IMG/VR virus record: IMGVR_UViG_2531839178_000011
Coordinates: 1 to 11,238 of that record
Direction: 5' to 3' (one strand)
Origin: a virus
Taxonomy: Duplodnaviria; Heunggongvirae; Uroviricota; Caudoviricetes
DNA: 11,238 bases
The position numbers were made by a program, and so were the translations under genes. The notes beneath the pieces are model-generated. The model saw nothing but the letters and a program-made list of their open reading frames with translations. It had not been told where the DNA came from and ran no database searches. Shown here one piece after another: positions 1-10,055 of the stretch; the stretch's first letter is position 1, and each line of letters starts with the position of its first letter.

Positions 1-75
1 CCCCATCAGCGACGTCTTGTGAAAATTGTCCTGTCTGGCAACAATCGCGCCCATCTATATTGATGGACACGAACG

Positions 76-750
76 ATGAATTCCCAGGCAACAAAAGATA
101 TTCCCTGCTTCCGTTCTTATTTGCCTGATGCCCTGCGTTTAAGATTTGAAGATAAACTGACCATCCGGGCCATCGCTCAGCGTCTGGGTCTCAGTCATTC
201 CACAATACATACGCTTCTTCAGCGATTTCTTGCATCCGGTATCGCATGGCCATTGCCCGATTCAGTTTCATTCGCTCAACTTGACGCCATCCTTTATGCC
301 AACAGAAAGAAGGAATTAACAGAGCCTCAAATCAGAGAAGGCTCATGGCGAAAAGAACGGCGAACCAGCTATAGCCGTGAATTTAAGGTCCGTCTGGCTA
401 AGCAGGCGTTACAGCCTGGGGCTGTTGTTGCCCGGATCGCCAGAGAACACGATATCAATGATAACCTGCTGTTTAAATGGAAAAGCCAGTACGAGGACGG
501 CTTACTGAGCGATGATGACATACAGGAATGCATGCCTGTCCCGGTGGCACTGACTGATACGCCGGAGCCGACCAGACCAGTTACAAATCCCTTCTGGCGT
601 AACAAGCATGATGAGCGCCCTGAGGGGGCTCCCGGAAACGTCCCACGGTGCGAGCTGCATCTTAAATCAGGTGTGGTAAAACTGTTTGACCCTCTCACTC
701 CGGAACTGTTACGGGCGCTAATCCGCGAAATGAAAGGGGGTATCCGATGA
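76..750 (+). CDS. tnpA: IS66-family accessory protein (TnpA/orf1-like), 224 aa with two helix-turn-helix-like segments
   Basis: The C-terminal half (RRTSYSREFKVRLAKQ...VARIAREHDINDNLLFKWKSQY) is an insertion-sequence orfA-type helix-turn-helix. The stop overlaps the next start as ATGA (747-750). The protein is longer than I expect for IS66 orf1, so the true start may be downstream of 76. Confidence 0.75.
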   Translation: MNSQATKDIPCFRSYLPDALRLRFEDKLTIRAIAQRLGLSHSTIHTLLQRFLASGIAWPLPDSVSFAQLDAILYANRKKELTEPQIREGSWRKERRTSYSREFKVRLAKQALQPGAVVARIAREHDINDNLLFKWKSQYEDGLLSDDDIQECMPVPVALTDTPEPTRPVTNPFWRNKHDERPEGAPGNVPRCELHLKSGVVKLFDPLTPELLRALIREMKGGIR

Positions 751-1094
751 TAACGCTGCCGACCGGTACCAGAATCTGGATCATCGCTGGCATCACAGAT
801 ATGCGTTGTGGCTTCAATGGCCTGGCTTCGAAGGTGCAGAACACGCTGAAAGATGACCCGTTCTCCGGGCATATCTTCGTCTTCCGGGGCCGCAGTGGCA
901 AAATGGTGAAAATACTGTGGGCCGATCGTGACGGGTTATGCCTGTTCGCCAAACGCCTGGAACGGGGCCGCTTCGTCTGGCCGGTGACCCGGGAAGGGAA
1001 AGTGCACCTGACGCCAGCTCAGTTATCCATGCTACTGGAGGGGATCGCGTGGCAACATCCCAAACGGACAGAACGGCCTGGCATCCGGATATAA
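747..1094 (+). CDS. tnpB: IS66-family Orf2 (TnpB of IS66; unrelated to the IS200/IS605 TnpB nuclease)
   Basis: 115 aa, MITLPTGTRIWIIAGITDMRCGFNGLA...LWADRDGLCLFAKRLERGRFVWP, a typical IS66 orf2 length and sequence pattern. Translationally coupled to the upstream ORF by an ATGA overlap. Confidence 0.9.
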   Translation: MITLPTGTRIWIIAGITDMRCGFNGLASKVQNTLKDDPFSGHIFVFRGRSGKMVKILWADRDGLCLFAKRLERGRFVWPVTREGKVHLTPAQLSMLLEGIAWQHPKRTERPGIRI

Positions 1095-1113
1095 CCCGTG
1101 ATAAAACAAGGGA

Positions 1114-2715
1114 ATGAACAATGAACTCCCCGATGATATTGAGCTGCTTAAAGCCATGTTGCGTAAGCAACAGAGTCGGCTTCGACAGTATGCCTGTCAG
1201 GTCGCGGGCTATGAGCAGGAAATTGAACGGCTGAAAGCGCAACTCGACAGGTTGCGTCGTATGTTGTTCGGCCAGAGTTCAGAGAAAAAGCGTCATAAGC
1301 TTGAAAATCAGATCCGACAGGCAGAAAAACGACTGTCGGAACTGGAAAACCGGCTGAACACAGCCAGAAATCTTCTGGAAGATGCATCGTCAGTCACAGA
1401 TTCACCTGACACCAGTCCCCCGTCAGAAAACCCGATCGCCAGTAAGCCTGAATCCCCGGGACGAAAATCTTCACGAAAACCGCTGCCGGCAGAACTTCCC
1501 CGGGAGACACATCGCCTTCTGCCTGCTGAAACCAGTTGCCCGGCCTGTGGAGGTGTTCTGAAAGAAATGGGGGAAACAATCTCAGAGCAACTGGATATCA
1601 TTAATACCGCCTTTAAAGTTATCGAAACCATACGTCCCAAACTGGCCTGTAGCCGGTGTGATGTCATCGTTCAGGCACCACTTCCCCCTAAACCGATCGA
1701 ACGCGGTTATGCCAGTGCAGGGTTACTTGCACGGATCCTGGTCAGCAAATATATGGAACATATCCCTTTATATCGCCAGTCAGAAATATACGCGCGACAG
1801 GGCGTGGAGCTGAGCCGTAATACCATGGTGCGCTGGGTATCAGAAATGGCAGACAAACTCCGTCCTCTGTATATAGCGCTGAATGACTATGTTCTGGAGG
1901 CAGGAAAGGTGCACGCAGATGACACTCCGGTGAAAGTACTGGCCCCGGGGAACGGAAAGACGAAAACGGGTCGTCTGTGGGTATACGTCAGGGATGATCG
2001 TAATGCGGGTTCATCCCTGCCGGCAGCCGTCTGGTTCGCGTATTCGGCAGATCGCAAAGGAGAACATCCGCAGCTCCACCTGGCAAAGTATCAGGGCGTA
2101 CTGCAGGCTGATGCCTATGCAGGTTATAACGTACTGTACGAAACGGGCCGGGTGAAGGAAGCCGGGTGCCTGGCCCACGCCCGCCGAAAAATCCATGACG
2201 AGGATGTGCGCCGTCCGACAGAAATGACTCAGGAAGCGCTCAGACGGATAGCAGAGTTATACGACATAGAAGCGGAGATACGTGGCAGTCCGGCAGAGGA
2301 ACGGCTTGCAGTCAGAAAAGCCAGAAGCGTCCAGTTGATGCAGTCGTTGTACGACTGGATACAGTTGCAGAGGAAAACGCTGTCGAAACATGCGGAGATG
2401 GCGAAGGCGTTCGACTATATCCTGAATCACTGGAATGCGCTGAACGAGTTCTGTCGTGACGGCTGGGTGGAAATAGACAACAACATCGGTGAAAACGCGT
2501 TACGATCGGTGGCGGTTGGAAGAAAAAATTATCTCTTTTTCGGCTCAGACAAGGGAGGAGAAAGTGCGGCGATCATCTACAGTCTGCTGGTCACCTGCAA
2601 ACAGAACGAAGTGGAGCCGGAGGACTGGTTGCGCGAAGTGATCGAGAAGCTCAATGACTGGCCGTCGAACCAAGTGCATGAACTGCTGCCCTGGAACTTC
2701 TCGTCTGTAAAATAA
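1114..2715 (+). CDS. tnpC: IS66-family transposase (TnpC/orf3)
   Basis: 533 aa with an N-terminal coiled-coil/leucine-zipper region ([14 protein letters not shown]...[12 protein letters not shown]) and CxxC...CxxC zinc-finger-like motifs (CPACGG...CSRCD), followed by a large catalytic domain. It sits 20 bp after orf2 and is preceded by AAGGGAATGAACAATG. Confidence 0.92.
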
Positions 2716-2730
2716 TCCTTACGCTACGTA

Positions 2731-2747
2731 CTTCTCGGGGCGCTTAC
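2731..2747. repeat. Right terminal sequence of the IS66-family element (inverted-repeat end ...GCGCTTAC)
   Basis: CTTCTCGGGGCGCTTAC lies 16 bp after the tnpC stop. Its reverse complement begins GTAAGCGCCCCGAGAAG. The full extent of the repeat cannot be set without the left end. Confidence 0.5.
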
Positions 2748-2748
2748 T

Positions 2749-3054
2749 GAAAAAGCAGAAACCAAAGGCGCGAAAGCCGCAAAGAACAGCGCTGCACAGG
2801 AAAACCCGGCACCGCTGGCAGACGTTATTGTGGCTGACGGTCAGGCGAATGAACCACGTCCGGCTGAAGACCCGGTTGCTGTACAGGGTGACGCCCCTGT
2901 CCGGCTGAACGTCAGGGCCGTGTCTGAAAACGGGTTCTGGCGCTGTGGCCGTTTCTGGTCACATATCGGTGAGGATGTGGCGGTGAGCGCTGCGGTTGCC
3001 ACCCGCCTGATGGCAGAGCCGAATCTGATTGTCCGGGAAGCGGAGAAAGGCTGA
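2749..3054 (+). pseudogene. 3' fragment of a phage head-region gene, apparently 5'-truncated by the IS66-family insertion
   Basis: Frame 1 is open from the IS terminus to the TGA at 3052-3054 and reads ...AKAAKNSAAQENPAPLADVIVADGQANEPRPAEDPVAVQGDAPVRLNVRAVSENGFWRCGRFWSHIG...EAEKG. The first in-frame start is a GTG at 2830 with no convincing Shine-Dalgarno. Its position directly upstream of the gp36-like gene suggests a Mu gp35-type head-associated protein, but the family is not confidently recognised. Confidence 0.5.
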
Positions 3055-3176
3055 TGGGATACATCACGCAGGAAGACCTGTTACGCGCGGACGGCAGAGC
3101 CGAATCTGATTGTCCGGGAAGCGGAGAAAGGCTGATGGGATACATCACGCAGGAAGACCTGTTACGCGCGGACGGC
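3015..3176. repeat. Perfect tandem direct duplication, 2 x 81 bp (3015-3095 and 3096-3176)
   Basis: The two 81-bp units are identical base for base and are bounded by GGCA microhomology at 3012-3015, 3093-3096 and 3174-3177. Each unit carries the upstream gene's TGA, a GGAGAAAGG Shine-Dalgarno and the ATG plus first 14 codons of the next gene. Confidence 0.95.
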
Positions 3177-3572
3177 AATCTTGTCTGGAACATGGCGATT
3201 AACCGGGAAACCAACGGGCTGGATGAAGACAAAATCCGTCAGGCCATCAGTGATGCGGAAGCGGAAATTGATTCGTTTCTGTCCCGCCGCTACCAGCTGC
3301 CGCTGGGGGTGACGGAAATCCCGCGCCCGCTGCAACGCGTGGCGGTATCGCTGGCGTTTTACTGGTTATCAGAGCGTGACAATCAAATCACGGAGCTGAT
3401 CCAGAAACGCTACGACGACGCCATTAAAACCCTGCGTGAAATGGCGAACGGCACCCGTGACCTGGGCCTGCCGACGTATGCCACCCCGGCAGAAACCGAC
3501 AACGGGAAAATTATTGTGGTGGGTGCCAATGCCCGGCTGTTCACCCGTAACAACCTGAAAGGGGTGCTGTGA
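3054..3572 (+). CDS. Mu gp36-like phage protein (DUF1320-type), with a 27-aa N-terminal duplication if translated from the first ATG
   Basis: MGYITQEDLLRADG...AISDAEAEIDSFLSRRYQLPL...KRYDDAIKTLREMANGTRDLG matches the Mu gp36 family pattern as I recall it. The second in-frame ATG at 3135, with an identical Shine-Dalgarno, would give the native-length protein. The stop overlaps the next start as ATGA. Confidence 0.8.
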   Translation: MGYITQEDLLRADGRAESDCPGSGERLMGYITQEDLLRADGNLVWNMAINRETNGLDEDKIRQAISDAEAEIDSFLSRRYQLPLGVTEIPRPLQRVAVSLAFYWLSERDNQITELIQKRYDDAIKTLREMANGTRDLGLPTYATPAETDNGKIIVVGANARLFTRNNLKGVL

Positions 3573-4114
3573 TGGGGATTTCTGTACAGGTCAGCGGTGA
3601 CCAGCGTCTGGAGGATATCCGCCGCGCCGTTGAAAAGCTGGCAGAGGGTTCATTGCAGTCAGAGCTGCTGGAAAGCATCGGTGCGGTGGTGGAATCACAG
3701 ACCCGCCGCCGCATCATCGATGAGAAAACCAGTCCGGGTGGCGAACGCTGGCCGGACTGGTCTGACGGGTACAAAAAGACCCGCCACGGCAACCAGAGTC
3801 TGCTGCGCGGTGAAGGCCATCTGCTGGAGAGTATCCAGTACATCGTGGAAAACCGCGTGGTGCGTATCGGTTCACCGCTGGATTATGCCCGCATCATGAA
3901 TGACGGCTTTTCCGGCAGCGTGCCGGTCAGCGCCCACAAACGGCTTATCTCGCAGTGTTTCGGGCGGGCGCTGAAATATCCGGTCTGGCAGACCGTCGGC
4001 GCACATCACCGCATGATGAACATTCCGCAACGTGAATTTCTGGGGCTGTCTTCTGCCAGCCAGCAGGAGCTGCAACAGGTTATCAGTCATTTCTGGAAGG
4101 AGGTTCTGCCATGA
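3569..4114 (+). CDS. Phage virion morphogenesis / tail completion protein (Mu G / P2 S-like family)
   Basis: 181 aa; the segment ...GERWPDWSDGYKKTRHGNQSLLRGEGHLLESIQYIVENRVVRIGSPLDYARIMNDGF is characteristic of this family. ATGA overlaps at both ends. Confidence 0.8.
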   Translation: MMGISVQVSGDQRLEDIRRAVEKLAEGSLQSELLESIGAVVESQTRRRIIDEKTSPGGERWPDWSDGYKKTRHGNQSLLRGEGHLLESIQYIVENRVVRIGSPLDYARIMNDGFSGSVPVSAHKRLISQCFGRALKYPVWQTVGAHHRMMNIPQREFLGLSSASQQELQQVISHFWKEVLP

Positions 4115-4722
4115 CAGAACAACGCCCTGAACTGCGCACACCGGGGAGCACCGTTGCGGCCGCAGAGCACATTGTGGCCTGGCTGCAGACGGCCCTTCAG
4201 GGGGACACCCCTGACCGGGCTGACGTGGTGGAGCGTCACATCGGCCAGTTCAACAGCCCGGATGAAGTGAAACGCTATCTGTCCGGTCGCACCGGCTGTA
4301 TCCGTGTCGCGGCCCTGCGTGTCCGGGATATCAACCCGCGCGGCGGGCTGTCCGGTCTGGTCACCTGGGTGGCTTACATCATGGCGACGGATTCGTGGGG
4401 GTATTCCCGCGACGTGCGCTGTGAAGTGCTGGCCGGAAAGGTGATCAAACGCCTGCTGTCGTCGGATGCCACAGCGGGCATGGGGGCTGAACGCATGGCT
4501 GCTGATGTGCGGGCAGACAACATTTACTCCGTCAGCCTCGACGGGCTGGGTGTCACCATGTGGGCGGTGACGTGGGAGCAGGAATTCCGGCTGGATGAAG
4601 AGATTGATCTCGCCGCGCTCCCGGATTTCCTGCGCCTCGGGGCGACACTGCGCAGCGGCGAACACACTGAAATTAACGACGTGATCCATGTACGGGGTGA
4701 CGATGGAACAGAAACTGATTAA
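4111..4722 (+). CDS. Mu gp37-like phage protein (DUF1834-type)
   Basis: 203 aa, in the position and of the size of the gp37 homologue between gp36 and the sheath in Mu-like tail modules; ATGA-coupled start. The family call is from memory and position. Confidence 0.65.
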   Translation: MTEQRPELRTPGSTVAAAEHIVAWLQTALQGDTPDRADVVERHIGQFNSPDEVKRYLSGRTGCIRVAALRVRDINPRGGLSGLVTWVAYIMATDSWGYSRDVRCEVLAGKVIKRLLSSDATAGMGAERMAADVRADNIYSVSLDGLGVTMWAVTWEQEFRLDEEIDLAALPDFLRLGATLRSGEHTEINDVIHVRGDDGTETD

Positions 4723-4888
4723 GCCAGCGCGGGAAAACGTCCGTGTCCGTAAACCGGATGGCGCACATTTATCCCCGGAAGGGGAACGTCTCAACGTCTG
4801 CGCTTACTGGCTGCGCCGTGAAGCCGAGGGAGATGTGGAAATAACCACACTTCCGAAAAATAACAACAAAACCAGAGGGAAAAAATAA
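4688..4888 (+). CDS. Mu gp38-like small phage protein (DUF2635-type)
   Basis: Small ORF immediately before the sheath gene, with its stop overlapping the sheath start (TAATG). An alternative start at ATG 4703 (MEQKLIKPAREN...) has a better GGGGTGA Shine-Dalgarno-like sequence and may be the real start. Confidence 0.55.
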   Translation: MYGVTMEQKLIKPARENVRVRKPDGAHLSPEGERLNVCAYWLRREAEGDVEITTLPKNNNKTRGKK

Positions 4889-6361
4889 TGTCGCTGGGTT
4901 CCATTCCTGATGATATCCGCGTCCCGCTTGTCTGGATCGATATCGACAATTCACAGGCGCTGGAGGGTGCATCCGCGCAAAGCCGAAAAATTCTGGTCAT
5001 GGGCCATGCGGTATCGTCCGGCAGCGCAGACGCCCTGTCACTGACCCGTATCACCAGTGACAGCCAGGCAGACCAGCTTTATGGCAAAGGGTCGATGCTG
5101 GCTGAAATGCTCAAAATGCTGCGTCGTGCCAACACGTACACGGAAACCTGGGCGATGCCGGTTGCCGCTCCTGAAGGCGCTGCCGCAAAAGCCACGCTGA
5201 CCGTGCTGGGTACAGCGACCGAAGCCGGAACGGTGGCACTGCTGATTAACGGTGTGTCCGTTCAGGTGAGCGTGAGCGCCGGGGATACGAAGGAAAACAT
5301 TGCAAAAGCCATTGCTGATGCGGTGACGAAAAAGCCTGCCACGCAGGTGGCCGCTGCGGTGAAGGATGATGCCACGGATACCGTGGAGCTGACCGTGAAC
5401 TGGCACGGCGTCACCGGCAACGGTGCCGACGTTCGCCTGAACTACCACACCGGTGAAGCCTTCCCGGCAGGTGTGAAGGTGACCGCAACCGCGTTTACCG
5501 GCGGCACCGGGACACCGGAAATGGCAGACGCCGTTGCGGCCATCGGCCCGGAGTGGTTTACCGATATCATCGCCCCGTTCACCGACACGAAAAGCCTGAA
5601 CACCCTGCGTGATGAACTGCTGAACCGCTGGGGGCCGCTCAAAATGATGGAAGCGCAGCTGTGGACGGCGTTTTGTGGCACGCACGGGGAAACCGGCACG
5701 TTTGGTGAAACCCGCAATGACTGGCTGATTAGCTGCATCGGCACCAACCTGTCGCCGCATCCGGCGTGGATGTGGGCCGCGTCATACGGCGCAACGGCAG
5801 CGTATCACCTTGCCATTGACCCGGCGCGTCCGCTTCAGACGCTGGTCCTGACCGGCATTCTGCCGCCTGCGCGTAATGTTCGCTGGGATATGGGAACGTA
5901 ACCTGCTGCTGCATGACGGCATTGCCACGCACATGGTGGACGCCGGGGATAACGTCTGCATCGAGCGTGAAATCACCATGTACCGGGTTAACCAGTACGG
6001 TGATGCGGATGTGTCGTATCTTGATGTGCAGTCACCCGCCACGCTGGGCCGTATCCGTTACATCATTAAAAACCGTTTCTCGAACCGTTATCCGCGCCAC
6101 AAGCTGGCGGATGATGACGTGCTGGACTCGCTGGATGCGGGGCAGCCGGTGATGACGCCGAAGCTGTGCACTGCAGAGCTGCTGGATATCTGCCAGACCG
6201 AACTTCTCCCGGCGGGCCTTGTGGAAAACTTCAGCGATTACAGGGACACGCTTCAGGTGACACGCGACAGCAGCGATAAAAACCGCCTGAACTTTATCTG
6301 CCACCCGAATCTGGTGAACCAGTTGCGTGTGCTGGCAGGCCTGATTCAGTTCAAGCTTTAA
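4888..6361 (+). pseudogene. Phage contractile tail sheath protein (Mu L-like), reading frame broken once
   Basis: Frame 1 (4888-5901, 337 aa) and frame 2 (open from 5852 to 6361) together give about 490 aa, a full-length sheath. The switch must lie in 5852-5898. The start is preceded by AGAGGGAAAAAATA. This may be a real mutation or a sequence error. Confidence 0.8.
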
Positions 6362-6370
6362 GGGGGCCAC

Positions 6371-6727
6371 ATGGCAAAAATTCTTGGCATGGCGACCATT
6401 CGCGTGAATGGCCGCGAAATTAAAACCGAGGGGAAATCCACGCTGAATCCGGGCGGCTTCAGCCGCACCCAGCATATGGGCGGCGGCAAGGTCTGGGGTA
6501 TCTCCAGCAAGATGGCCTCGCCGTCCATCAAGGTAACCATTGCGGCGGCAGCGGATATGGACGTGATTGAAATCAGCAACTGGGAAGATGTCACGGTGAT
6601 GTTCTACGGCGACAACGGCCTGAACTACATGATGACGGGTTCCGCCACGGATAACCCGGCAGAGCTGGACGAGGATTCCGGCACCATCAGTGCCAACTTT
6701 ATCGGTGAAAAATGCGTGAAGGTGTGA
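6371..6727 (+). CDS. Phage tail tube protein (Mu M-like)
   Basis: 118 aa, directly downstream of the sheath gene, with a Shine-Dalgarno AAGGGGG before the ATG. Size and position match a contractile-tail tube protein. Confidence 0.8.
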   Translation: MAKILGMATIRVNGREIKTEGKSTLNPGGFSRTQHMGGGKVWGISSKMASPSIKVTIAAAADMDVIEISNWEDVTVMFYGDNGLNYMMTGSATDNPAELDEDSGTISANFIGEKCVKV

Positions 6728-6728
6728 C

Positions 6729-7124
6729 ATGGCCGCAATGGAATTTGAACTGAAACACGGGCTTCTGACCGGCAAAGGCACGGCAGATGAAACCCTGCAT
6801 AAAACCGTGAAACTGCGCGAACTGACCGCCAGTGATGTGATTGATGCGCAACTGGCCGCAGAACGCGTCGTCATGGGCGGGAACGGAAAGGCGGTGGCCT
6901 ACTGTTCTGAGGTGCTGATGGGACTGGAGATGATGCGCCGTCAGGTTGCGTCAATCGGTAATATCCCCGGCCCGCTGGACATGAAACAGCTGCGAATGCT
7001 CCACCCGGCAGACCTTGAGCTTATCAGCACGAAAGCGGCTGTGCTGGATGACATGCTTGAGGAGGTGGCAACGCGGGGGCGAACTGATGCCGCTGGCGTC
7101 GGCACTGATGAACCTGCTGGTTAA
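6729..7124 (+). CDS. Phage tail assembly chaperone (Mu gp41-like)
   Basis: 131 aa between the tube and tape measure genes, the conserved position of the tail assembly chaperone. An overlapping +1-frame extension is annotated separately. Confidence 0.65.
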   Translation: MAAMEFELKHGLLTGKGTADETLHKTVKLRELTASDVIDAQLAAERVVMGGNGKAVAYCSEVLMGLEMMRRQVASIGNIPGPLDMKQLRMLHPADLELISTKAAVLDDMLEEVATRGRTDAAGVGTDEPAG

Positions 7125-7224
7125 CCTGTCTTCGCGATTCAGCATTCAGTACCTGGAACAGCTGCCCCTGCGGCAGTTGTTCCGCCTGATAAAGCAACTG
7201 GAGAAACAGCATGGCAACAGGTAA
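6985..7224 (+). other. Out-of-frame (+1) extension ORF overlapping the chaperone 3' end; candidate translational frameshift product
   Basis: Frame 1 is open from 6985 to 7224 and overlaps the tape measure start at 7211. Its distal part (ELMPLASALMNLLVNLSSRFSIQYLEQLPLRQLFRLIKQLEKQ) looks like real protein, while the chaperone's frame-3 tail (RGRTDAAGVGTDEPAG) looks degenerate. The -1 frame is full of stops. Confidence 0.4.
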
Positions 7225-8953
7225 CCGTCTCAGCACGGAAATCATGATCAACCTTGCCGGGAACCTGACCGCCAAAGCCCGGCAGTACGGTGCAAACATG
7301 TCGCAGTTCGCCCGGAACAACCAGAAGGCCATGCGCCTGGTCAAAGCCACAACGGAGGCTGCCGGGCGCAGTCTGGATGCGCTTGGCAACCGCTACACGG
7401 CGATGATTGCCGGGTTCGGTGGTGGTATGACCCTTAAAGGCCTGACAGATTTTGATGCGCAAATCCGCCGTGCGGGTACAAATGCAAAACTGACCGATGA
7501 GCAGGTATCCCGTTTAAGAAAAAACATCCGGGAAACCGCCAGAATGTCAGACATTCGCCTCAGTGCCCAGGTCTTACTGGAAGGCCAGGATGCACTGTAT
7601 GGCCTGACCGGTAAGCCGGAATTTGTTGAAAAAAACATCCGCAATCAGGGGCTGGCCACGCAGGCATTCGGGACTGCGCCACAGGATGCCGCGGCACTGA
7701 TGGCACAGATGTCCGAAAAACAGATTGAAGCGCCTCAGGAGGTTGAAGGCATGTTCGACCGCTTCTACCACCAGTTTTCCATTGGTTCGGTTGGTGTGGA
7801 TCAACTGGCGCGTGTATCAGCAAAACTGTTTTCGATTTATACCGGTGGTGGCAAAGAGGCGATGGCCCAGTTGGGGGCACTTGAACAGATGCTGGCAAAA
7901 ACAACCGGCTCTGCGGATGAAGCGGTGACCGCGCTGAACAGTATCTGGAGTGAAGTCACCCGAAAAGACAATATCAAGTTTCTGAAAAGAAACGGGGTTG
8001 ATGTGCTTGATCCTGTCACAGGAAAACCCCGTCTGCCTTATGACGTAATCAGAGACGTTGTCAGGCGGGCAAAATTTAATGAGCAGAACTTGCAGGATGT
8101 TTTCGGGGATACTTCCATGCGTGGATTAAGGGCACTGCTCAGTGAAGACGCCCTTCAGCTAACAGAAAAAATGATTTACGCCCCGGTTGAATCCGGTGCC
8201 ATGAGAAAAGCTGCGGAGAAAAACGCCCGGAGTTTTCAGTCTGCGATGCAGTCCCTGAAGAATGAATATGAGGTTTTTGCTGAAAAAAATCTGGCAAAAC
8301 CCGTTCAGGACCTGGCGGATGCCATCAACAGCGTGGACCAGAACTGGTTGCAGGTCGGTAAATATATGGCAATTGCGCTGGGTGGCATTATCGCCGTACG
8401 TAAGACGTACAAGCTCGGTAAAACCATCCACGACATCATGAATCCCAAAGGGAAAGGCAAAGGGATACCCGGCAGCGTGGCAGACGGCAACCCCGGCTTT
8501 GCCATCGGGCTGTCACCGGATTATCAGCCGGTATCTGACAGCCTGCAAAAGAACATTGACGACTTCCGCCAAGTGGTTGTGCTGGGAGCCCTGCTGGGAC
8601 AGGCCAGTGCCGTGGCCTCGATGACGTTCGATACCCGTGATGCGGCGTTATCTGCCGGTGACACGCTGGCGGCTGAACTGCATGAGCAGGCGGTGGCGGC
8701 GGTGGAAAACAACCAGCGGACATTGTGGCGAACGCTGCGCGATTTACGGCAGGCCGTGATTACGGATGCCCGCGAGCGTGCCGCCCGTCTGCCGGAAACC
8801 CGGCAGGTGACGCTGACCACAACCACCTCTGCCGCATTGCTGGCATGGCGCGAGCATGGTGACACACGCCGACGGGATGAAATCGTGCAGCGTAACCGCC
8901 TGCGTCATCCGTCATTCATCCTGCCGACGCAACCTGTGGAGATCACCGACTGA
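7211..8953 (+). CDS. Phage tail tape measure protein
   Basis: 580 aa, the largest ORF, immediately after the chaperone/frameshift region. It is helical and Ala/Gln/Leu-rich with a hydrophobic segment (YMAIALGGIIAVRKTYKLG). Shine-Dalgarno GGAGAAACA before the ATG; its stop overlaps the next start (TGATG). Confidence 0.8.
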   Translation: MATGNRLSTEIMINLAGNLTAKARQYGANMSQFARNNQKAMRLVKATTEAAGRSLDALGNRYTAMIAGFGGGMTLKGLTDFDAQIRRAGTNAKLTDEQVSRLRKNIRETARMSDIRLSAQVLLEGQDALYGLTGKPEFVEKNIRNQGLATQAFGTAPQDAAALMAQMSEKQIEAPQEVEGMFDRFYHQFSIGSVGVDQLARVSAKLFSIYTGGGKEAMAQLGALEQMLAKTTGSADEAVTALNSIWSEVTRKDNIKFLKRNGVDVLDPVTGKPRLPYDVIRDVVRRAKFNEQNLQDVFGDTSMRGLRALLSEDALQLTEKMIYAPVESGAMRKAAEKNARSFQSAMQSLKNEYEVFAEKNLAKPVQDLADAINSVDQNWLQVGKYMAIALGGIIAVRKTYKLGKTIHDIMNPKGKGKGIPGSVADGNPGFAIGLSPDYQPVSDSLQKNIDDFRQVVVLGALLGQASAVASMTFDTRDAALSAGDTLAAELHEQAVAAVENNQRTLWRTLRDLRQAVITDARERAARLPETRQVTLTTTTSAALLAWREHGDTRRRDEIVQRNRLRHPSFILPTQPVEITD

Positions 8954-10055
8954 TGGAATCCGTGATTCTTACCGTTGACGGCAAACTGTGGGAAGGCTGG
9001 ACGGAAATGTCCGTCAGCCGTTCCCTGAAGGCGATTGCCGGTGAGTTTGAACTCAGTGTGACAACCCGCTGGTCAGCGGCGGCACCGCGCGTGATTCGTG
9101 AGGGGCAACCCTGCACGGTCAGGCTGGGCGCGGATACCGTGCTGACGGGGTATATCGATGATTTTATTCCCGGCTATGAGGCTGAAAACGTGGAGATTCG
9201 CGTCATGGGGCGCGATAAAACCGGCGACCTGGTGGACTGCTCTGTGGTGCATTCGTCCGGGAAATGGAAAGGCGTGCGGCTTGAACAGGTGGCGGCTGAT
9301 GTCTGCCGCCCGTTCGGGATAACCGTCATCACGGAAACCCCGACCGGGGAGGCATTTGCGTCTGTCGTTCTGGAACAGGGTGAAACGGGCTTTGAACTGC
9401 TCGACCGGCTGGCAAAACAGCGCGGCGTTCTGCTGACGTCTGACGGCGCGGGTAACCTGATTATCACCCGCGCCTCTTCCGTTCGCGCGGGCGTGTCACT
9501 GGTGCTGGGAAAAATATCCTCGCCGCCCGTGGGCGCTTCAGCTGGCGGGAGCGTAACAGCCAGTACATCATCAAGGGCACCACCAGTGCCCGTGGCAAAC
9601 TGTGGGACAGCCAGCCTGCCCCGATGGTGGGCGGTCGCCAGTACATCACCGAAGCCCCGGAAATTAACCGTTACCGCCCGCGCATTCTGGTCAATGAAGA
9701 CAGCCTGACCGTGGGCGGGGCCAGCATTCGCGGGGAATGGTACAAAGCCCGGATGCTGGGAGAGTCCCGCACGACGGAAATCACGGTGGCAGGCTGGCGC
9801 GAACAGGGCGACAGCGGCCCGCTGTGGCAGACCAACCGCCTTGTCGATATCGACGACAGCATTCAGAACCTGAAAACCACCTGGCTGATATCCGGGGTGA
9901 CATGGACGGATGGCGCACAGGGGAGGATGACGGTTCTGGCGCTGGTTCCGCCTGAATCACTGGACATGCCGGAAATGAAAGCGAAGACGAAAAAACAAAG
10001 GCGGTGGCCACATGGGATTAAACGCAATTGCCCGCCGCCTGCGACTGATGGTTGA
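8953..10055 (+). pseudogene. Phage baseplate hub / tail protein D (P2 gpD / Mu P-like), reading frame broken at an A5 run
   Basis: Frame 1 (8953 to about 9510) and frame 3 (open from 9456 to 10055) join into one protein of about 367 aa (...ITRASSVRAGVSLVLGK/NILAARGRFSWRERNSQYIIKG...). The junction is the A5 run at 9510-9514; one more A restores the frame. This may be a real mutation or a homopolymer sequence error. Confidence 0.8.

Follow-up and report, generated by a model that had tools for sequence, protein, structure and literature searches.

An IS66-family element joined to the tail genes of a Mu-like prophage

The stretch of DNA analyzed here, called the window below, is the entire contig AKNA01000011.1 (11,238 bp) of the Shigella boydii draft assembly GCA_000268145.1. 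Its features are listed in Table 1. The window begins with an insertion sequence (IS), which was assigned to the IS66 family because it carries an orfA with an HTH domain, TnpB_IS66, DDE_Tnp_IS66 and the terminal inverted repeat GTAAGCG..., seen at the right end as ...CGCTTAC (2741-2747). This right end was 100% identical to the ISSfl4 copies of S. flexneri virulence plasmids; the left end and the 8-bp target duplication fall beyond the contig. All of the window that follows the IS is the tail-gene half of a Mu-like prophage.

In an intact prophage of this kind (locus L001, in E. coli FDAARGOS_943) the genes run in the order terminase, portal, Mu F-like protein, protease, major head gene, 103-aa gene, gp36-like gene, virion morphogenesis gene, sheath, tube, tape measure, DNA circularisation and baseplate. 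The head, terminase and portal genes are all missing from the window, where the IS replaces everything upstream of the remnant of the 103-aa gene and also the first 5 nt of that gene, ATG included. The 103-aa gene is annotated as 'hypothetical' or 'HI1506-related' in intact prophages, and its truncated ORF was found on 13 contigs. NCBIfam gave no family name for this gene or for the gp36-like gene downstream of it. The latter does belong to the phage Mu gp36 family (PF07030, DUF1320, also called the 'gp436 family'), a late gene at the boundary of head and tail genes. Residues 30-152 of the 172-aa form matched the Pfam Mu Gp36 model with E = 7e-31 and 107.4 bits against a cut-off of 24.7, and the succession of major head gene, 103-aa gene, gp36-like gene, virion morphogenesis gene, sheath and tube is Mu-like as well.

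Table 1. Features of the IS/prophage junction, the duplication and the deletion junction (window positions)
Feature	Position	Strand	Remarks
ISSfl4-like IS66-family IS	1..2747	+	Left end lost at contig start; right terminal repeat ...GGGGCGCTTAC to 2747
IS ORFs, all three intact	76-750, 747-1094, 1114-2715	+	Pfam HTH_Tnp_1, TnpB_IS66, DDE_Tnp_IS66
Remnant of the 103-aa gene, which lies 3' of the major head gene in intact prophages	2748..3054	+	From alignment to L001 8996-9307
Mechanical ORF of the 103-aa gene remnant	2830-3054	+	GTG start, 74 aa, TGA at 3052-3054
Repeat copy 1 with GGCA borders	3012-3096		GGCA at 3012-3015 and 3093-3096; functional stop of the upstream ORF; first SD/ATG
First SD/ATG (copy 1)	GGAG 3042-3045, ATG 3054-3056		
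gp36-like gene (PF07030, DUF1320, 'gp436 family')	3054..3572	+	172 aa from ATG 3054; 145 aa from ATG 3135
New junction	~3087-3102		...GCGGAC-GGCA-GAGCCG...
Junction sequence for read matching, short form			GCGGACGGCAGAGCCG
Junction sequence for read matching, flanked form			...TTACGCGCGGACGGCAGAGCCGAATCTG...
Repeat copy 2 with GGCA borders	3093-3177		GGCA at 3093-3096 and 3174-3177; second SD/ATG
Second SD/ATG (copy 2)	GGAG 3123-3126, ATG 3135-3137		Start of the native-length gp36-like protein
CCCGGC microhomology at the 1,376-bp deletion junction	8468..8473		From comparison with relatives

Several of the tail genes are broken. A 2-nt deletion at about 5890-5895 (ATGCCGGAACG -> ATGGGAACG) divides the sheath gene into ORFs 4888-5901 and 5876-6361. 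This deletion is common only to two other loci, the nearest relative (L015; PSSP01000001.1, a 5.1-Mb contig of GCA_002968135.1) and a contig of the Logan assembly collection (L022; ERR200314_382, from run ERR200314), and the 491-aa gene is intact in all other loci. Further downstream, a 1,376-bp deletion fuses the tape-measure and DNA-circularisation ORFs into one ORF of 580 aa (7211-8953). The deletion was seen against all relatives except L022, in the same private sub-lineage as the duplication described below, and, apart from the window, only two Logan contigs are on record with the 580-aa fusion. A search of 2500-3700 for sigma-70-like promoters gave none, and no late promoter or activator is present at the locus. 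Because it has no head genes, because its sheath, tape-measure and baseplate genes are broken and because no promoter is visible, the locus is a dead prophage remnant. Read-through transcription from the IS into the locus is conceivable.

Two other departures from the intact prophages were observed in this region. The gp44/GpP-like baseplate gene (8953-9708) is cut down in the window to 251 aa from the 356 aa of intact prophages. It is also shortened in those loci with the IS junction in which a gene call was made (to 278 aa in L013 and to 237 aa in L008), and the truncation appears to be an older lesion of the IS-bearing lineage. The tape-measure region is mosaic: window 7470-8470 was about 86% identical to L001 13644-15967 or could not be aligned with it, and the flanks were 98-99.5% identical.

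A perfect 81-bp duplication across a stop/start junction

A first-pass annotation of the window, made from its sequence, had described a perfect, in-frame 81-bp duplication flanked by GGCA, and two methods returned the same structure. Tandem Repeats Finder reported one array at 3012-3177 with a period of 81, 2.0 copies, 100% matches, 0 indels and a score of 332. Direct comparison gave an 85-nt run of identity between 3012-3096 and 3093-3177, that is, 81 nt plus the 4-nt GGCA border, and a run of this length cannot be chance. The two copies are direct repeats placed head to tail, with nothing between them and a single new junction. In the unduplicated ancestral state, represented by L001 and L015, GGCA stands at both ends of the unit (...CTGATGGCAGAGCC... 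and ...GCGGACGGCAATCTT..., 81 bp apart), and after the duplication there are three GGCA repeats with one new junction. In every respect that can be tested, the array is a microhomology-mediated tandem duplication.

The unit takes in the last 13 codons of the upstream ORF with its TGA stop (3052-3054) and, from the gp36-like gene, the GGAG Shine-Dalgarno (SD) sequence, the overlapping ATG and the first 14 codons. The whole set of stop, SD and start is repeated 81 nt downstream. Because the unit spans the overlapping stop/start TGATG, both ORFs are intact after the duplication: copy 1 supplies the stop of the upstream ORF, as before, and copy 2 the SD and the start of the native gp36-like ORF. 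The gp36-like gene thus has the second ribosome-binding site and ATG that had been claimed for it in the first-pass annotation, which had also proposed a possible 27-aa N-terminal extension if translation began at 3054. The comparison of the two forms, 172 aa and the native 145 aa, agrees with this. The 81-nt spacer between the two ATGs has no stop in the gp36 frame, so a ribosome starting at the first ATG would make the 172-aa protein.

The extension consists of MGYITQEDLLRADG, which repeats the first 14 residues of gp36, followed by the 13 residues RAESDCPGSGERL, which are the tail of the upstream gene read in another frame. All 27 extra residues lie outside the PF07030 domain, which begins at residue 30. 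The 172-aa product is RefSeq WP_000540586.1, and the source name given on the proteins of the contig is Shigella boydii. The length annotated in this strain, 172 aa in place of 145 aa, results from the duplication alone. WP_000540586.1 is therefore a by-product of the duplication and is not to be read as a natural N-terminal variant of the family.

An independent assembly and the copy number in relatives

The first-pass annotation had left open whether the duplication was very recent, unstable or an artefact of assembly. In the last case, an 81-bp overlap of read groups or contigs would have been left unmerged in the 2012 draft, and the true genome would carry one copy. Identical copies are what an unmerged overlap would give, AKNA01000011.1 is a draft contig and short (11,238 bp), the 172-aa product is encoded by this assembly only, and the assembly holds a probable homopolymer miscall at about 9990 (A6 instead of A7). 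We used the position at which contigs break in the Logan assemblies as a read-level proxy, so that the break position stands in for reads. Logan is built with k=31, and all 31-mers are distinct within an accession (PMC12424806). No Logan contig can therefore run through a perfect 81-bp tandem repeat; where the junction is present in the reads, the contig has to end at the borders of the repeat.

A simulated k=31 graph of the two-copy window had unitig starts at 3012, 3067, 3093 and 3148, the 'exit' unitig beginning at 3148. When one copy was removed from the window, the graph had no break anywhere in 2700-3400. The first base of the Logan contig from run ERR200314 (L022) corresponds to window 3148, and the contig is identical to window 3148-9995. 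Both the sheath frameshift and the junction of the 1,376-bp deletion are present in it. A break at 3148 leaves a partial product of 140 aa, which was found on only 2 contigs in the entire collection, the same number as the Logan contigs with the 580-aa fusion. The controls were Logan contigs from one-copy runs that have the same IS junction, for which the predicted 111-aa partial product was indexed in 51 blocks; 6 contigs were retrieved and checked. All six start at 2719, the IS border, cross the site with a single copy of the unit and run into the 145-aa gp36-like gene.

By this proxy, the junction is present in an independent read set of the lineage. Because an independent, read-based k=31 assembly breaks at 3148, the exact base that junction-bearing reads predict, an assembly artefact is unlikely. 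Other results also speak against it: the break is confined to 2 Logan contigs with the same private deletion, the control contigs are unbroken (6/6), and 4 bp of border homology would be improbable for a random concatenation (1.6-2.5%). Moreover, the other private rearrangement, the 1,376-bp deletion, was confirmed in L022, suggesting that the structure of the contig is otherwise trustworthy. We consider it very likely that the duplication is real. In the same way, contig ends in fixed-k assemblies (Logan, for example) are usable as indirect read evidence for small, perfect tandem duplications.

The homopolymer at about 9990-9995 reads A6 in the window and A7 in L022, L015, L001 and the others except L010 (AKMV01000036.1). 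This sole other A6 comes from the same AK-prefixed sequencing batch. The A6 creates an overlapping ORF (9624-10055) and is probably a homopolymer miscall typical of the AK-prefixed project, with no sign of structural misassembly.

One Shigella chromosome (CP026836.1) carries both a near-complete Mu-like prophage (L004) and an IS-truncated remnant (L005), showing that paralogous copies coexist in some strains. A single-nucleotide difference between paralogues was considered as a cause of the Logan break and was rejected; 0 of 20 related loci vary at the two positions that this would require.

Look-ups of exact proteins added 27 loci, of which 26 cover the duplication site. Each of the 26 has one copy, and 18 of them share the identical IS/prophage junction and so go back to the same IS insertion. 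The top matches in complete E. coli genomes likewise have one copy, 853 bases of the query corresponding to 772 bases of the record (a difference of 81), and they include two at 99.9-100% identity, each with one copy. A 70-nt query across the new junction had no contiguous match in 5,426 complete E. coli genomes, every listed match being in two pieces. A 37-mer of the junction had 0 exact matches in GTDB species representatives and JGI metagenome contigs, the GTDB scan presumably being weakly informative if Shigella genomes sit under E. coli there. The index of the collection has the native 145-aa product in 728 blocks but the 172-aa product on AKNA01000011.1 only. In the phage collection, the sole megablast match was a distant Klebsiella phage (74.6% identity, 46% of the query covered), which did not serve as a comparator. 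In the plasmid collection there was one prophage-bearing plasmid, with one copy, and the remaining matches were to the IS end only.

The closest comparison is with L015. It has 0 mismatches to window 3096-8473 and shares the sheath frameshift, yet it has one copy and lacks the 1,376-bp deletion. Because L015 has one copy with no SNPs, the duplication postdates every point substitution in the surrounding DNA of about 8 kb. These results bear out the expectations of the first-pass annotation that related prophages carry a single copy and that the event is very recent.

The same comparisons bear on whether the site is a copy-number-variable (VNTR-like, contingency) locus that regularly expands and contracts in this phage family. 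In general, 81-bp tandem repeats can gain or lose copies by recombination. However, there is exactly one copy at the 26 other loci and in all top E. coli matches, so that copy number does not vary among strains outside the sub-lineage, and neither a third copy nor divergence between copies was seen at any locus. The unit, moreover, is ordinary coding sequence across a gene junction and not a repeat-prone motif. We regard a variable locus of this kind as extremely unlikely.

Origin and consequences of the duplication

The anatomy of the repeat points to slippage or template switching. A nascent strand ending in GGCA (the single-copy equivalent of 3174-3177) would re-pair with the GGCA 81 bp behind (3012-3015), and the 81-bp interval would then be copied a second time. 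Such slippage or template switching would take place inside one replication fork and would be RecA-independent; the presence of only 4 bp of homology suggests this independence during replication. With so little homology, unequal exchange through RecA is improbable. The border is itself short: identity of at least 4 nt at the borders of random junctions is expected in 1.6% (analytical) to 2.5% (empirical, for this sequence) of cases, so that a border like this one would occur by chance in about 2% of junctions. Folding the DNA of 3000-3190 yielded a z-score of -2.6, which is modest, and no convincing hairpin joining the GGCA repeats, and secondary structure was therefore left out of the mechanism. 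The 1,376-bp deletion between CCCGGC repeats would be the opposite outcome of the same class of error in the same sub-lineage.

Template switching has been invoked for E. coli tandem repeats whose borders share 4-15 bp of G-rich homology; where such a switch stays inside one fork, its reach is put at a few hundred to a few thousand bp (Slack et al. 2006, PMC1428787). The duplication in the window resembles those repeats in being a head-to-tail direct repeat with a single new junction, in having a short G-rich repeat (GGCA) at both ends and in offering no long homology that RecA could use, and here a deletion between 6-bp repeats is found in the same lineage. It differs from them in that the unit is 81 bp, a size that fits slippage within a fork, whereas the amplicons there were 7-32 kb. 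It also differs in coming from a natural isolate and not from a selection experiment, with no sign of selection or of further amplification.

The way in which the lesions are shared suggests the order of events. The IS insertion and the gp44-like truncation, common to all loci with the IS junction, would have come first, the 2-nt sheath deletion (L015, L022 and the window) second, and the two lesions that the window shares with the two Logan runs, the 81-bp duplication and the 1,376-bp deletion, last. The window and the two Logan runs might represent one culture-collection strain that was sequenced repeatedly, in which case the last two events would belong to one strain and not to a clade.

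We also asked whether the duplication might have been adaptive. It could have uncoupled the gp36-like gene from the ORF decapitated by the IS, given it an independent ribosome-binding site and ATG, or provided a useful 27-aa N-terminal extension, for example in a domesticated tail-like particle. Both frames are kept, the 81-nt spacer is free of stops in the gp36 frame, and the event lies directly downstream of the IS-damaged gene. However, the tail module cannot work, given the sheath frameshift, the fusion of the tape-measure and circularisation ORFs and the gp44-like truncation; there are no head genes, and no promoter was detected. The duplication is found in one sub-lineage only and shows zero divergence. 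An open frame over 13 out-of-frame codons would be expected by chance about half the time, and the native SD and ATG are already present in the one-copy relatives, so that nothing new was gained. An adaptive origin therefore seems to us scarcely credible.

A related reading takes the duplication as an uncoupling, caught in the act, of overlapping and translationally coupled phage genes. A duplication that spans the junction would insert a spacer made from the head of one gene and the tail of the other, and it would at once provide an isoform with an alternative start, whose new N-terminal residues would be overprinted from the 3' end of the neighbor. With transcription of the locus from the IS, gp36-like proteins of both 172 aa and 145 aa would be expected in the strain. 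We think this very unlikely for the duplication in the window.

The best explanation, which we hold with good confidence, is a real and very recent slippage duplication that is private to one S. boydii sub-lineage and selectively neutral, in a dead prophage remnant. Neutrality is suggested by the context, because the remnant is truncated by the IS and lacks head genes, has no visible promoter and has broken sheath, tape-measure and baseplate genes. The duplication would thus be neutral noise of genome decay, fixed by drift or carried in a clonal line. Since the head genes are missing and the tail genes broken, the 27-aa extension is without plausible function, and the choice between the two ATGs is of little biological consequence in an IS-truncated remnant with several pseudogenes.

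This is a well-known kind of mutation in a well-known setting, the decay of prophages and genomes in Shigella, and nothing in it lies outside established knowledge. Its biological weight is small: it is one more rearrangement in a decaying Shigella prophage, by microhomology-mediated slippage under relaxed selection. The duplication and the deletion between CCCGGC repeats are of some practical use as clean markers for one S. boydii sub-lineage. As in other decaying ('grounded' or cryptic) Shigella prophages eroded by IS elements, an IS66-family element truncates the prophage, and there are frameshifts, deletions and IS-mediated changes in the flanks. Prophage decay is usually described as a loss of DNA. 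In contrast, one of the lesions here is a small gain, which leaves both neighboring ORFs intact.

To the left of the same IS/prophage junction, the chromosomal DNA differs from strain to strain. It is a T6SS vgrG island in L005, L012, L013 and L014, relA-mazEF-pyrG-eno in L008 and bamA-rseP-cdsA-uppS in L015, suggesting that IS-mediated inversions or deletions followed the original insertion. In several of the strains with differing left flanks, the IS ORFs themselves are broken.
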